Of a stretch of DNA of 64,000 bases, positions 14,140 through 18,895 are shown one piece after another (the first letter of the stretch is position 1; every line of letters begins with the position of its first letter). The notes below the pieces were generated by a model. The model saw only the letters and a program-made list of their open reading frames with translations, was not told the origin of the DNA and ran no database searches. The stretch is from NCBI GenBank assembly GCA_003009755.1, contig PXUB01000032.1, forward strand, positions 1 to 64,000. The letters are read 5' to 3'. The position numbers and the translations under genes were made by a program. This DNA is from Thermoplasmatales archaeon SW_10_69_26 (GTDB taxonomy: Archaea > Thermoplasmatota > SW-10-69-26).

Positions 14140-15537
14140 TCAGCCGGGCAGCGAGCCGTCCGGCTGCAGCACGCGACCCTCCAGCTTCTCGGGCACGTCC
14201 AAGCCCAGCAGGTCCAACAGCGTGGCGGCGCCGTCCGTCGCCTGCATGTCGTCGACCGTCCCCGAGAACCGATCCCCGGGGTCCGAAACCACGATCAGAC
14301 CCTCGCTGCTGGCGGTCGCCTCGTGTCGACCGCGTGCGGGGTCGGTGAGCACGGTCTCGTGGCCCAGCGAGGCCTCGCAGCGGTAGGCCAGCTCCTCGAC
14401 GTAGACGAACAGGTCCGGGCCCTCGTCGACGCGGGCGCCCTCGTGGACCTCGCCCGGCGCGATCGCCTGCGCCGCCAGGTGGCCATCGCCGGCGTCGATC
14501 GCGGCCAGCTCGGCCTGCAACTCGTCGCGCAGCGCCTCGTAGTCGAGCGGGGGCACCGTGCCCTGAGGCTCGCGCCCGGCCACGTTCAGGTGGATGTGGC
14601 CGGCGGCTCCCCCGGCGGCCCAGGCTTGCGTGTTCGCCCAGTCGACCCGCTCGGCGTCGAAGGCCGTCGGCGCCTCGGGCTCGTCGGCGAGGGACAGATA
14701 GCCCTCGCGGCGCAGCCAGGCGTTGAGCTGCACCGTGCCCTGGCAGGCCTGGGCTCCCTGGACGCTTGCGACCACGATCGCGGTGTCGTCCGGCAGTGTC
14801 TCCACGAGGTCGCCGATCCGCTCGTCCAGGCGCCGGTGGTGGGCGCGGACGGCGTCTCCGGTGTCGTCCTCGTGCAGCGCGTGCTCGGTGTCGTGGGTGC
14901 TCCAGGCGGTCTCCTGCACGAGCCGCGGCGAGCGGGCGACCATCGCGAACAGATCCCACGAGCGCTCGGCCAGGTGCTCGGCGACGTCGAAACGCTGCGC
15001 GAGCGCCGCGCGAGCGCGATCGAGCTTGCTCTGGCGGTCGGCCTCGGCCGGCGGCTCGGTGAAGAACGCCTCGCCCAGGGCGAGCTCCTCGCCAAGCTCG
15101 GGCGGATGCGTGACGGCGGCGTCCGGGCCGGGCGCTGGCGAGCCCGCCACGACGGTACCGTCGACCGGTTCGACGGGGAACGTGTGCGGCAGGCCGACCA
15201 ACGCGAGATCGCACCCGGCCTCGCCGGCCCGCTCCCACACGGTGGCCTCGTCCAGCGCGAGCGATCCGACGCGGGCGCCCTCGCCGTAGGGCGCCTGGCG
15301 ACCCTGTCGGGTGATCGTCCAGTCGCGGTTCGTCTCGCCGGTCAAGCCCAGTTCGCCGGGGTTCTGTCCGGTGAGGAACGACGTCCACGCGGGGATCGGC
15401 TCCGGCGGGTGCGTCGAGGCAAGGGGCCCGCTGACGCCGTCCTCGGCCAGCTCGGCCAGGTTGGGCATCGCGTCGGCGAGTTCGTCGAACACCAGCGACG
15501 GGTCCGCGCCTTCGAGACCGATGACGGCGACCTTCAC
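14140..15537 (-). CDS. Alkaline phosphatase superfamily (type I phosphodiesterase-like) protein with degenerate active site
   Basis: VIGLEGAD, STHPPEPIPAWTSFLTGQNPG, LNAWLRREGYL, VDWANTQAW and IHLNVAGREPQG segments. Confidence 0.85.
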   Translation of the reverse strand: MKVAVIGLEGADPSLVFDELADAMPNLAELAEDGVSGPLASTHPPEPIPAWTSFLTGQNPGELGLTGETNRDWTITRQGRQAPYGEGARVGSLALDEATVWERAGEAGCDLALVGLPHTFPVEPVDGTVVAGSPAPGPDAAVTHPPELGEELALGEAFFTEPPAEADRQSKLDRARAALAQRFDVAEHLAERSWDLFAMVARSPRLVQETAWSTHDTEHALHEDDTGDAVRAHHRRLDERIGDLVETLPDDTAIVVASVQGAQACQGTVQLNAWLRREGYLSLADEPEAPTAFDAERVDWANTQAWAAGGAAGHIHLNVAGREPQGTVPPLDYEALRDELQAELAAIDAGDGHLAAQAIAPGEVHEGARVDEGPDLFVYVEELAYRCEASLGHETVLTDPARGRHEATASSEGLIVVSDPGDRFSGTVDDMQATDGAATLLDLLGLDVPEKLEGRVLQPDGSLPG

Positions 15538-15622
15538 GGGGATCGGCGGACCAGGAGGGGGACGCGTAGAAAAGGGTGCGGGTGGAGGGCACGGAGGGTG
15601 GCCGAGGGCACAGAGCAGGGGC

Positions 15623-15660
15623 CAACCACAGAGGCACAGAGGACACGGAGGATACACAGA
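15623..15660 (+). repeat. 9-bp-periodic purine-rich repeat (cacagagg/cacggagg)
   Basis: aaccacagaggcacagaggacacggaggatacacaga; similar in style to the arms of repeat family B. Confidence 0.5.
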
Positions 15661-15670
15661 AGAAGGACCG

Positions 15671-15799
15671 ATGGAAGAGAGCGTCTCCGGGTTCAGCGAG
15701 CGCGGCACCTGGAGCGACATCGTGGAGCACGGCGAGCGGATCACCCGGAAGGACGGGATCGCCGTCACCTCAGCCCTCCCAACGCTTCCGAGAGTGTAA
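15671..15799 (+). pseudogene. 5' fragment of a haloarchaeal DUF5828-like gene
   Basis: MEESVSGFSERGTWSDIVEHGERITR matches my recollection of that family's N-terminus, then the similarity stops. Confidence 0.55.
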
Positions 15800-15837
15800 G
15801 CAAACCGTTAATGCGTAGGCGCGGCTCACGTCCCCCC

Positions 15838-16071
15838 GTGGCCGAGGGACGCGTCCTCGTCGACGTCCACCGCGAAGAGCCCCCCGAGGGCCAGCGGCAC
15901 CGGATGTGCAAGCACTGCCCCTACTGGTACGGGGCCGAATCCGACGAGTACGGACCCTGCTCCATCAAGACGGCCCGCGGCGAGGAGCGCTACCTGACGT
16001 TCGGGACCTGGGACTGCGACGAGGGCATGACCGACCCGATCGAGGACGGGGACGGAGGGGACGAGGGATAG
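15838..16071 (+). CDS. Small Cys4 metal-binding protein
   Basis: CKHC...GPC...WDC in 77 aa; TTAATG box about 30 nt upstream; first gene of an overlapping operon. Confidence 0.65.
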   Translation: MAEGRVLVDVHREEPPEGQRHRMCKHCPYWYGAESDEYGPCSIKTARGEERYLTFGTWDCDEGMTDPIEDGDGGDEG

Positions 16072-16904
16072 CCGAGATCTCCCCGCTGGACGGCTCCACG
16101 ATCGACGACGCCGAGCCCCTGCGCGAGTTCTGGGGCTACGGCGAGGCGTCCTTCGCCGAGCTCGTCGACCTGTGCGAGGGCTGTGCCCGCGTCGCCTACG
16201 TCGACGACGAGGCCGTCGGCATGACGTTCGCCTTCCCCTGGCATCCCGTCGGCTGGATCGGCAGCGTGCTCACGCTGCCGGACCACCGCGGGCACGGCAT
16301 CGGGCAAGCCGTCACCGAGGCCGGCATCGAGGCGCTGGGCACGGCCGGTTGCGAGACGGTGAAGCTGTACGCCACGCCGAAGGCTCAACCCCTGTACGAG
16401 CGCATCGGGTTCACCGGCGAGGCGGCCTTCACGGTCGCCCGCGGCGGCGCCCGCCGGGGCCGCGATCCCGACGTCGACCCGCTGGCCGACCACCTCGACG
16501 CGGCCCAGGAGCTCGACCGCGGGGTCTTCGCCGCCGACCGATCGGCGTTCCTCGCATCCAAGCTCGAGCGCTTCCCCGACGCGAGCGTGGCCGTCACCAC
16601 CGACGACGGCGAGCTGGCCGGCTACGGCATCGCCCGCCCCGGGCCGACGGTGACCGAGATCGGGCCCGTCGTGGCGCGCGGCGGCGACGCCAACGTCGCC
16701 CAGCGCCTCGTCGACGGCCTGCTCACCCGGGTCCCCGACCAGGACGTCGAGGTCACCTACCCCCGCGAGGGCTGGGCCGCCTCCTCGAGCTGGTCCTGTC
16801 GGGGCTTCGTCTCGATCGACGAGCCGTTGCAGATGCGGCTGGGCCCGGCCACCGAGGAGCACCGCGATGCGATCGTCGCCGCAGGAGGGCAAGACGTTGG
16901 CTGA
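16068..16904 (+). CDS. Two-domain GNAT acetyltransferase
   Basis: LPDHRGHGIG...LYATPKAQPLYERIGF, then a second GNAT-like domain (FAADRSAFL, IGPVVA); start uncertain (ATA at 16068). Confidence 0.82.
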   Translation: MAEISPLDGSTIDDAEPLREFWGYGEASFAELVDLCEGCARVAYVDDEAVGMTFAFPWHPVGWIGSVLTLPDHRGHGIGQAVTEAGIEALGTAGCETVKLYATPKAQPLYERIGFTGEAAFTVARGGARRGRDPDVDPLADHLDAAQELDRGVFAADRSAFLASKLERFPDASVAVTTDDGELAGYGIARPGPTVTEIGPVVARGGDANVAQRLVDGLLTRVPDQDVEVTYPREGWAASSSWSCRGFVSIDEPLQMRLGPATEEHRDAIVAAGGQDVG

Positions 16905-18108
16905 CCCCATCGAGCTGTACGACACCGGCGAGCATCGCGTGCGCGAGCTCGAGACGATCGAGCCCGACCGCGTCCGCCTGTACGTGTGCGGCATCAGCGT
17001 CTCCGGCCCCCCGCACGTCGGCCACGGCCGCAGCTACGTCATCTTCGACGTGCTGCGCCGCGTGCTCGAGCACGCCGGCTACGAGGTCGACCACGTCCAG
17101 AACTTCACCGACGTCGAGCACGCGATAATGAAGCGCGCCGAGAAGCGCGGCCTCGAACCGCTCGCGTACGCCGAGCAGATGATCGAGGCCTACTTCGACG
17201 CGATGGACCGCATCGCGATCAAGCGCGCCGACCGGTTCCCCCGCGTCACCGACTACATCGACGACATCATCGACGCCACGCGCACCCTCGAGGACCACGA
17301 GTGCGCCTACGAGATCGACGACGGCGTCGCCTTCCGCATCTGCGACGTCGAAGGCTTCGGCACCCTGCTCGGCAAAGTCCCAGCCGACGCCGTCGTCCAC
17401 GAGGTCCCCGAGGAGCAGTGGAACGGCCGCGAGACGCCCTTCGACTTCATCGTGTGGCGCAACACCGACGACCTGGGCGTCACCTGGAAGACCAGCTTCG
17501 GCGAAGGCCGCCCCGGCTGGCACACCGAGTGCGCGGTCATGGCCAACGATCTGCTCGGCGAAACGATCGACATCCACGGCGGCGGCGCCGACCTCGTGTT
17601 CCCGCACCACGAATGCGAGCGGGCGATCGCCCGCTGCCTCTCCGACGGCGAGTTCGCCAACTACTGGGTCCACAACGGCCTCGTCACGCTCGACGAGGAG
17701 AAGATGAGCAAGAGCCTGCGCAACTCGGTGCCGCTGTCCGGCGCCATCGACGACCACGGTCCCGCCCAGGTGCGCCTGGCCTACCTCAGCGAGGACTACC
17801 GCGAGACGATGGAGTGGAACGACGCCCGCCTCGCCGACGCCGACGAGCGCGTCCAAGCCCTCCACGACGCCCTGCAAGAGGCCGCCGAGGGCACGCCGGC
17901 GGGCGCCGCCGCCGAGCTACGCGACGAGGCGATCGGTGCCTTGCGCTCGAACCTGGACTTCCCCGCCGCCCTCGAGGCGCTGGACACCGTCGGCCAGCAG
18001 CACACCGACGCCCCCGGAGCCCGGCAAGCCCTGATCGAGGTCCTCGACGTGCTGGGCTTGGCCGAGCTGGAACCGTTCGCGAGCGAGGTCGGGTCCGATG
18101 ACCCGTGA
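16897..18108 (+). CDS. cysS: Cysteinyl-tRNA synthetase-like ligase with shortened C-terminus
   Basis: YVCG, HVGH, GRPGWHTEC, DIHGGGADLVFPHHE and KMSKS motifs; 403 aa from TTG; no anticodon-binding tail visible. Confidence 0.85.
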   Translation: MADPIELYDTGEHRVRELETIEPDRVRLYVCGISVSGPPHVGHGRSYVIFDVLRRVLEHAGYEVDHVQNFTDVEHAIMKRAEKRGLEPLAYAEQMIEAYFDAMDRIAIKRADRFPRVTDYIDDIIDATRTLEDHECAYEIDDGVAFRICDVEGFGTLLGKVPADAVVHEVPEEQWNGRETPFDFIVWRNTDDLGVTWKTSFGEGRPGWHTECAVMANDLLGETIDIHGGGADLVFPHHECERAIARCLSDGEFANYWVHNGLVTLDEEKMSKSLRNSVPLSGAIDDHGPAQVRLAYLSEDYRETMEWNDARLADADERVQALHDALQEAAEGTPAGAAAELRDEAIGALRSNLDFPAALEALDTVGQQHTDAPGARQALIEVLDVLGLAELEPFASEVGSDDP

Positions 18109-18895
18109 CCTCGACTCCTGGCACCAGGAGATCCCCGCCGTCGCCGCCCACCGCGGCGGCCGCAACATCGGTCCCGAGAACACGATCTACGGCATCCTCG
18201 AGGGCCTGGGCGCCGGCGCCACGCACCTGGAGATCGACGTGCGCGGCACCGCCGACGACCACGCTGTCTGCTTTCACGACGACAACGCCCAGCGCACCTG
18301 CCGTGAGGACGTCGAGATCGCCGACCTCACGCTCGAGGAGGTGCGCGAACTCGATCCCTGCACCAAGTGGAGCGAGCTGGCCGGCATCGCCACCGGCGAG
18401 CAGGACCCACCCCAAGGGATGCGGGCCCGGCACTTCCAGGTGCCCGAGCTGCACGAGATCCTGGAGCTGTTCAGCGGCGTGCCGACCATCCTCGACCTGA
18501 AGGACACGGCGCCCGTCGGCGTGGTCGTCGACGCGATCGAGGAGGGCTGGCAACGCGAGAAAGACCTGCTCTTGGGCGGCTTCGACGACGACAAGATCGA
18601 CGAAGTGGCCAGCCAGCTCGACGGCGTGCCCCGCACGACCGGTCGCGACGAGGCCGAGGCGTTCTTCTCGGGGGAGACGATCGAGGCGGAGGCCCTCATC
18701 ATCCCGCCCACGCACGAAGGCATCGACCTCGTCGACCAAACCACCGTCGACCGCGCCCACGACCAGGGGGCCGCCGTCTGGGTCTGGACGATCAACGACG
18801 CTGCCCACGCTCGCCAGCTGTTCGAGCTGGGCGTCGACGGGATCATCACCGACGAGCCCGACAAGCTGGCCCGGGCCCGCGCCCGGTCGATCTGA
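18098..18895 (+). CDS. Glycerophosphodiester phosphodiesterase
   Basis: AHRGG, PENT, EIDV, FHD, WTIND, GVDGIITD motifs. Confidence 0.9.
   Translation: MTRDLDSWHQEIPAVAAHRGGRNIGPENTIYGILEGLGAGATHLEIDVRGTADDHAVCFHDDNAQRTCREDVEIADLTLEEVRELDPCTKWSELAGIATGEQDPPQGMRARHFQVPELHEILELFSGVPTILDLKDTAPVGVVVDAIEEGWQREKDLLLGGFDDDKIDEVASQLDGVPRTTGRDEAEAFFSGETIEAEALIIPPTHEGIDLVDQTTVDRAHDQGAAVWVWTINDAAHARQLFELGVDGIITDEPDKLARARARSI

Follow-up and report, generated by a model that had tools for sequence, protein, structure and literature searches.

Positions 15838–18895 of the 64,000-nucleotide stretch of DNA analyzed here (the window) carry four mutually overlapping plus-strand genes, as read from the list of open reading frames (ORFs) and from the DNA itself. 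Three of them, encoding a small four-cysteine protein, a tandem GNAT N-acyltransferase and a shortened paralogue of cysteinyl-tRNA synthetase (CysRS), form a module that recurs in the same order in related archaea. We tentatively propose, with somewhat less than even confidence, that this module encodes a tRNA-independent cysteine ligase that acts in complex with an iron–sulfur (Fe-S) partner and whose product is then N-acetylated. The window has a G+C content of ∼70% and belongs to contig C32 of a 2.8-Mb, 95% complete metagenome-assembled genome (MAG) of the Thermoplasmatota (G000); the nearest public loci are labeled as Thermoplasmata or Thermoplasmatota MAGs, and contigs from halite metagenome runs carry a stretch of the same genome. 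The four genes are as follows.

15838..16071, plus strand: small four-cysteine protein of 77 aa, with a GTG start and a TAG stop at 16069–16071 (ORF, DNA and alignments).
16068..16904, plus strand: tandem GNAT N-acyltransferase (Pfam Acetyltransf_1 and Acetyltransf_18), 278 aa if read from ATA 16068, its start in the alignment.
16867..18108, plus strand: CysRS paralogue without an anticodon-binding domain, 413 aa, or 404 aa from the alternative start TTG 16894 (PF01406 only).
18098..18895, plus strand: glycerophosphodiester phosphodiesterase (GDPD), 265 aa (PF03009, E = 8e-33).

In gene order, the overlaps measure 4 nt, 38 nt (or 11 nt with the TTG 16894 start of the CysRS-like gene) and 11 nt. 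An original prediction, made from the letters of the window alone, had proposed four overlapping genes beginning at 15838, and this layout is borne out by the ORFs, by the DNA and by an N-terminal stretch of the four-cysteine protein that is conserved in family relatives and backs the start at GTG 15838. An A/T-rich motif, TTAAT, is located at 15805–15812, ∼30 nt 5′ of this GTG and within G+C-rich DNA; from its sequence, it may be the archaeal TATA box of a leaderless transcript. The aligned start of the GNAT gene is ATA 16068, which overlaps the upstream stop codon as ATAG and is replaced by ATG, GTG or TTG in the relatives. GTG 15906, the only canonical in-frame start for the GNAT, would add 54 residues across the four-cysteine gene, in a frame that contains stops in the relatives.

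The trio, defined as the four-cysteine gene, the GNAT gene and the short CysRS gene in that order, is complete in all 11 loci from relatives of the window (five from the same family and six from the same class), as well as in 4/4 further genomes of the class. A four-cysteine motif scan of 185,579 species genomes yielded 15 loci, 14 of which have the complete trio, the sole exception (L030) having the four-cysteine and GNAT genes only. Among the related genomes, window included, the trio is complete in 20 of 21 (alignments A2, A3 and A4), a degree of conservation far beyond chance. Whether the neighbors are conserved together with the CysRS-like gene, a point that the original prediction had raised, can thus be answered with yes for the four-cysteine and GNAT genes. 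In a separate metagenomic clade of short CysRS with 53–54% G+C (P0093 type), the full trio was present in five of five loci examined, out of seven with at least 60% identity.

Compared with TIGR00435, the model of canonical CysRS, the short CysRS of the window scores 329 bits, below the cut-off of 340, and the match ends at model position 370 (positions 2–370 of 466). Pfam detects no DALR_2 (PF09190) or anticodon-binding domain in this protein, and the anticodon domain is missing from all short CysRS compared. As can be seen from the alignment, the protein nevertheless has the HIGH motif (as HVGH), the KMSKS motif and the zinc ligands C41, C222, H247 and E251. A CysRS paralogue that keeps these elements and has no anticodon domain is what the prediction had described, and both parts of that description hold. 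C41, H50, H53, W218, C222, H247 and K279 are kept in 42/42 rows of short CysRS and K282 in 41/42. By contrast, Arg181 and Gln254, each of which is present in 53 of the 55 full-length CysRS rows, occur in a single one of the 42 short rows. Since the catalytic residues are retained and Arg181 and Gln254 are lost, the sequences suggest that adenylate formation has been kept and tRNA-related function lost in the short CysRS. In short CysRS from the class of the window, positions K188 and K198 are occupied mostly by Arg and position E204 mostly by Gly. The claim of atypical motifs stands only in part: S44 and H85 are true departures from the canonical Thr and Asp, but they are variable among relatives. 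The zinc-ligand Cys at window position 222 is itself replaced by Asp in 5 of the 55 full-length rows, which include all three canonical copies from Thermoplasmatota family f23 (L171, L174 and L175) and two other full-length rows.

The lengths of CysRS, counted from the aligned start, are bimodal, with 392–424 aa for most module-linked copies and 466–517 aa for canonical copies from the same genomes or from related ones; a divergently placed module copy from family f32 (L163) has 450 aa. Two unrooted maximum-likelihood trees were built by quick search and without MshC, the first from 85 rows under LG+G4 after duplicate loci had been dropped, the second from 91 rows under LG+C20 PMSF after removal of P0049, P0064, P0076, P0018, P0040, P0046 and the partial L164. 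In both trees, a branch with an SH-aLRT of 99 parts every full-length CysRS, archaeal or bacterial, from every short form. The ‘3 changes’ scored on the second tree for the label ‘short’ are an artefact, as the threshold of <455 aa caught the full-length bacterial P0041, P0105 and P0019. Because the canonical copies from module genomes group with other Thermoplasmatota, the short paralogue is not a recent duplicate. A sequence search of the PDB with the short CysRS gave CysRS as the best matches (8qhp, 265.9 bits; 1li5, 231.3 bits), and MshC (3c8z, 8hfm) scored 168.6 bits. Sources annotate the short genes as ‘cysteinyl-tRNA synthetase’, and metabolic reconstructions would be misled if these genes were counted as cysS.

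The original prediction also turned on whether the genome has a second full-length cysS, and such a gene was found on contig C4. Its product scores 342.8 bits against TIGR00435, above the cut-off, over positions 107–464 with the anticodon-binding part included, while the N-terminal piece is matched in another frame (split near base 2587, locus L001). The two pieces meet at one point; aligned with the unbroken gene of a family relative, they show no gaps elsewhere and are 71–74% identical to it. At this very point, five additional bases are present in contigs of runs X1, X2 and X4, and with these the gene becomes a continuous frame of 469 aa with HIGH and KMSKS. Since the 5-base insertion restores the frame, the population has an intact canonical CysRS, and the break most likely stems from a fault in the assembly rather than from decay into a pseudogene.

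In the genome, ARAGORN found a single tRNA-Cys(GCA), confirmed by an Rfam tRNA match, and it found no tRNA in the window (none is listed on C32 before base 67096). Four odd ARAGORN calls (C12:8344-8758, C20:25615-25691, C32:122460-122555 and C39:7126-7222) comprise one ‘SeC’ interrupted by a 319-nt intron and three ‘???’ whose anticodons have 2 or 4 bases; for these four, Rfam gave no tRNA match at E ≤ 0.01. In the same genome, tRNA-Trp was not cleanly found by ARAGORN. These data bear on the alternative that the short CysRS has remained a tRNA ligase, be it a tRNA-Cys isoform for special conditions or an enzyme like CysRS*, in which case the Fe-S protein would be a redox regulator and the GNAT would act on aminoacyl-tRNA or on proteins. 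The fully kept catalytic core is in line with this alternative, as is the pairing, in family f10, of the four-cysteine and GNAT genes with a canonical CysRS only; in addition, CysRS* charges a tRNA though it has no anticodon domain, which shows that anticodon-independent charging can evolve (excerpts of PMC9437257). However, there is one tRNA-Cys(GCA), the odd calls have no Rfam support and the window has no tRNA; the anticodon domain is gone in all short forms, and the Arg and Gln that are kept in 53/55 true CysRS are lost in 41/42 of them. We therefore consider continued tRNA charging decidedly unlikely.

The small protein encoded upstream carries the motif C24-x2-C27-WYGAE-x-DEYGP-C41-x2-K44-x2-R47-x6-T54-x-G56-x3-C60-DE, with a cysteine spacing of 2/13/18; the 90% consensus of 45 rows reads C..C..WYG.E....G.C..K..R......T.G...C-DE, and the four cysteines are invariant in the family alignments. 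The family is rare: a search of 1.84 billion representatives gave 47 clusters, and 42 of these match at E ≤ 1e-10. All strong matches are 47–162 aa long and free of fusions to other domains, the two long ones match weakly (E = 3e-5 and 8e-4), and a fusion of the four-cysteine domain to GNAT or CysRS was not seen among the 47 hits. At its own thresholds, Pfam finds no domain in the protein of the window. Below threshold, 20 of 21 members match the Pfam family HIPIP (PF01355) of high-potential iron–sulfur proteins (HiPIPs) at E ≤ 5, the best at E = 8.6e-5. In the other direction, a profile of the wider A2 family searched against the whole PDB retrieved only three chains, all of them HiPIPs (E = 0.085–0.25), which align on C-x2-C...G-x-C, so that the first three cluster cysteines of 1hpi, 1pih and 2hip align with cysteines of the family; the narrower A1 profile found nothing in the PDB. 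Since the matches are weak but reciprocal between Pfam HIPIP and the PDB, the four-cysteine protein is probably, on sequence grounds, a remote HiPIP relative and a putative [4Fe-4S] protein. An AlphaFold2 (AF2) model of the protein alone has a pLDDT of 49.3, and a look-up in the ESM Atlas was uninformative, returning only unnamed small viral clusters at 0.91.

A three-chain structure prediction was performed using custom alignments of the ligase (A4), the GNAT (A3) and, as partner, the four-cysteine protein (A2). The partner obtained an ipSAE of 0.77 in three runs, compared with 0.00 for the best of three controls. In the calibration, 58 of 80 solved complexes attained this mark, as did 2 of 110 mismatched pairs, but ipSAE is the model's own confidence and a three-chain job with custom alignments is unlike the calibration, which must be held against the proposal made here. 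At least 81% of contacts are shared among the runs, and the pLDDT of the partner is 78 or higher. Confident contacts are predicted with the ligase only, at residues 172–198, 217–219, 241–247, 250, 272, 274, 287 and 314. The first of these segments is the connective-peptide (CP) domain and includes the paralogue-specific positions 181, 188 and 198, the second adjoins the W218 site and the third reaches the zinc ligand H247. On the small protein, the predicted contacts (2–8, 28, 31–34, 36–42, 44–46, 50–55, 57–58 and 61) take in the majority of its conserved positions. K44 and T54 are predicted to pair with ligase residues 176–178, away from the catalytic pocket, so that the model does not point to either residue as an acceptor. 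A control in which the GNAT was kept and the ligase was swapped for an unrelated protein scored 0.00, a modeling result that neither supports binding of the four-cysteine protein to the GNAT nor is evidence against it. We know of no similar complex, and PDB sequence searches with the four-cysteine profiles found none. According to the prediction, the four-cysteine protein docks on the CP domain and the active-site rim of the ligase, where the acceptor arm of a tRNA would lie.

For the tRNA-independent ligase that we tentatively favor, we infer as follows how the cysteinyl group is transferred, what accepts it and what is acetylated, and also that tRNA charging has been lost. The short CysRS would bind zinc, cysteine and ATP and form cysteinyl-adenylate; tRNA-Cys would be served by the separate full-length CysRS, the short form no longer acting on it. 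The small Fe-S protein would dock on the CP domain and active-site rim in the position of the acceptor arm, and the cysteinyl group would be passed to a non-tRNA acceptor that is either held by the small protein or part of it. The GNAT would then use acetyl-CoA to acetylate the freed amino group, in the way that MshD follows MshC in mycothiol synthesis. Such a tRNA-independent transfer is the most economical explanation, because the residues for Cys-AMP formation are kept, the anticodon domain and two further residues are lost and docking of the partner is predicted. In one version of this scheme, a class I aminoacyl-tRNA synthetase (aaRS) paralogue would employ the HiPIP-like protein instead of tRNA and move cysteine onto this protein itself, much as PoxA modifies EF-P, and the GNAT would cap the amino group. 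We regard such tRNA-independent protein cysteinylation as unlikely; if true, a protein-borne N-acetylcysteinyl thiol beside an iron–sulfur cluster would be a new prosthetic group or redox switch.

The distribution of the module was followed with a profile of the four-cysteine protein, which found the gene in 47 of 401 Thermoplasmatota genomes. By family, it was present in 19 of 20 genomes of f1–f6, 2/2 of f10, 9/9 of f23, 5/5 of f24 and 10/10 of f25 and in one genome of f32; the same scan did not find it in f8 (0/48), f11 (0/36), f18 (0/53), f28 (0/58) or f20 (0/24). The f24 and f25 examples have the full trio, and the f32 example has the four-cysteine and GNAT genes with the ligase gene in divergent orientation. 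The module is confined to several uncultured Thermoplasmatota lineages, one of which comes from halite. Across these lineages, the four-cysteine protein is the one constant member; the ligase is found with it in most though not all of them, and so is the GNAT. At least two CysRS-type matches were found in 43 of the 47 genomes with the four-cysteine gene and in 15 of the 354 others, figures that serve as a description and not as a test, as related genomes are non-independent; seven of the 15 belong to f20, and several look like split genes. In family f20, 7 of 24 genomes (G047, G072, G082, G109, G113, G125 and G153) have two CysRS-type matches and no four-cysteine gene, which may represent another kind of CysRS duplication.

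Several of these observations weigh against a tRNA-independent ligase with an Fe-S partner, in addition to the charging of a tRNA by CysRS* and the uncertain calibration of the predicted complex. In family f10 (G024 and G035), the four-cysteine and GNAT genes are present and the sole CysRS is full-length with canonical residues, so a short ligase is not a constant requirement. In family f23, the four-cysteine gene stands alone, and the short CysRS (406–413 aa) is unlinked and occurs in addition to a canonical CysRS; since a GNAT of the module's family was not found in two of three f23 genomes, the system does not invariably include acetylation. The zinc ligand E251 is kept in 38 of 42 short CysRS rows and replaced in the remaining four. 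Finally, the four-cysteine protein of the window scores 19.1 bits against Pfam HIPIP (E = 0.0017), under the cut-off of 22.

The third protein of the trio, the GNAT, gave an AF2 model with a pLDDT of 93.9. Its N-terminal domain has the acetyl-CoA motif R74-G75-x-G77-x-G79 (R-G-x-G-x-G), and its C-terminal end is conserved as GG(L/Q)E(K/V/L)G. Foldseek placed an uncharacterized Pyrococcus horikoshii protein (3ddd) first, with a TMq of 0.84; the MshD structures 1ozp and 2c27 rank 30 and 36 among the fold matches, with TMq values of 0.58 and 0.64, respectively. Other tandem GNATs among these matches are Eis, VipF and a glucosamine N-acetyltransferase. Eis and VipF are protein acetyltransferases, in keeping with a further alternative, in which the module would serve cysteine or redox sensing or sulfur trafficking. 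Here the CysRS-like protein would bind cysteine or make cysteine persulfide and hand on sulfur or a signal to its Fe-S partner, and the small protein would be controlled through acetylation by the GNAT, at K44 for instance. That the partner is HiPIP-like and constant across lineages fits this idea as well; however, the presence of H50, H53 and K279 in all 42 short rows and of K282 in 41 of them argues for real adenylate chemistry. We consider this alternative very unlikely.

The pairing of a truncated CysRS with a tandem GNAT is that of MshC and MshD, raising the possibility that the module makes a free thiol similar to mycothiol. Cysteine would be joined to a small amine (a sugar, polyol or lipid head group) and acetylated by the GNAT, the GDPD would supply or recycle the acceptor and the four-cysteine protein would be accessory or regulatory. 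In agreement with this, the GDPD gene overlaps the ligase gene in 6/6 genomes of the family, window included, the genome has two inositol-1-phosphate synthase genes (C17:26038-26364 and C2:9855-10181), and small HiPIP-like subunits occur on other enzymes. On the other hand, both proteins fall below the MshC and MshD cut-offs, PF02585 (PIG-L/MshB) has 0 matches in the 95% complete genome, and MshA (TIGR03449) reaches 136.5 bits at best in this genome against a cut-off of 462.5. Furthermore, the GDPD was not found in the class-level or other-family modules examined, the phyletic pattern centers on the four-cysteine protein and not on the enzyme pair, and in the structural model the four-cysteine protein covers the active site on its acceptor side. 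We hold a free thiol to be doubtful, and, in view of the HiPIP likeness and the predicted active-site docking, a mechanism centered on the protein is no less likely than a free small thiol. The mycothiol-like pathway of the original prediction survives as a frame, the tRNA-independent logic of MshC and MshD still being the best available, but membership in the mycothiol families is unsupported, given the scores below the MshC and MshD cut-offs and the failure to find MshA and MshB.

The GDPD itself lies directly downstream of the ligase in 5/5 loci of the family, compared with 0/6 class-level loci, and likewise in L019–L023 but not in L024–L033. A role for the GDPD in the operon, as first proposed, can accordingly be considered for the window's family and not at class level. 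In that family it may, as pure conjecture, supply an alcohol or amine head group to the reaction. The genes that flank the class-level trios vary (DUF2721, ATP synthase D, TFIIB, TrmB and unknowns), and flanking genes were rejected as module members because they differ from lineage to lineage. On the other side of the window's module, at 14140–15768 on the minus strand, lies a divergent gene for a type I phosphodiesterase/nucleotide pyrophosphatase (PF01663), so that the module is flanked by two phosphodiesterases; this gene has no match in loci L019–L033.

Full-text literature searches, which did not extend to supplements and any gene lists in them, found no description of the module. The excerpts of a 2022 review name few aaRS paralogues outside translation, namely MshC, PoxA, the amino acid:carrier-protein ligases, YadB and HisZ, and list CysRS* and MshC as the only CysRS paralogues (PMC9437257). 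A 2010 survey of class I aaRS-like ligases treats MshC and, in its excerpted text, no such archaeal CysRS paralogue (PMC2922099), and the excerpts of a survey of cysteine-encoding systems deal with SepRS-like proteins of Thermoplasmata and not with the short CysRS, ‘CysRS-like’ giving no hit there (PMC8762117). According to the corresponding part of a 2020 review, mycothiol and its genes are absent from the archaea sequenced so far (PMC7278568), so the module is a testable candidate for an archaeal cysteine-derived thiol or protein modification. If our proposal is correct, it would add a class I member, with a dedicated Fe-S protein partner, to the few aaRS paralogues that have left translation.

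Among known systems, canonical CysRS is similar to the short CysRS in that the catalytic domain aligns and the residues for cysteine, zinc and ATP are kept; it differs in having DALR_2, R181 and Q254 and in lying on the other side of the tree. MshC of actinobacterial mycothiol synthesis is likewise derived from CysRS, has ∼410 aa, retains the zinc site, HIGH and KMSKS and is devoid of the anticodon domain, and its partner MshD is a two-domain GNAT, so that the chemistry to be expected would run from Cys-AMP to an amide and then to N-acetylation. Yet the short CysRS of the window scores 264.5 bits against MshC (TIGR03447), far from the cut-off of 485.1 (266.1 for relative P0008 and 241.9 for P0015), a comparison that rests on hidden Markov model and PDB scores, the trees having been built without MshC. 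Against MshD (TIGR03448), the GNAT of the window scores 17.9 bits (E = 0.0015; cut-off 163.1). The tandem fold is common to both, but 3ddd is much closer in fold to the window's GNAT than 1ozp or 2c27. The acetyl-CoA motif of the window's protein is in the N-terminal GNAT domain, whereas the active domain of MshD is the C-terminal one. The window's module further differs from MshC and MshD in its tight gene linkage and its additional, putative Fe-S partner protein.

CysRS* of the Desulfobacterales (Mukai et al. 2017, as reported in the excerpts of PMC9437257) is another CysRS paralogue without an anticodon-binding domain. It is coupled to the SelC* tRNA and to SelB* (same excerpts), whereas the partners in the window are a GNAT and a putative Fe-S protein, the window has no tRNA, and the ARAGORN calls of the genome include no Rfam-supported special tRNA. 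For the predicted docking of the small protein, a working analogy is provided by PoxA/EpmA with EF-P and by the amino acid:carrier-protein ligases, truncated aaRS homologues that no longer have the tRNA-binding domain and whose substrate is a dedicated protein partner encoded nearby (excerpts of PMC9437257); these are class II enzymes that act with EF-P or with phosphopantetheinylated carriers, in contrast to the class I enzyme and HiPIP-like partner described here. That partner shares with HiPIPs (PF01355; 1hpi, 1pih and 2hip) the pattern C-x2-C...G-x-C...C and flanking aromatic residues, but its matches fall below the curated threshold, its cysteine spacing is 2/13/18, and it is cytoplasmic and encoded together with a ligase and a GNAT. 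Set beside these systems, the module would encode a ligase that derives from an aaRS, works independently of tRNA and has an Fe-S partner without precedent.

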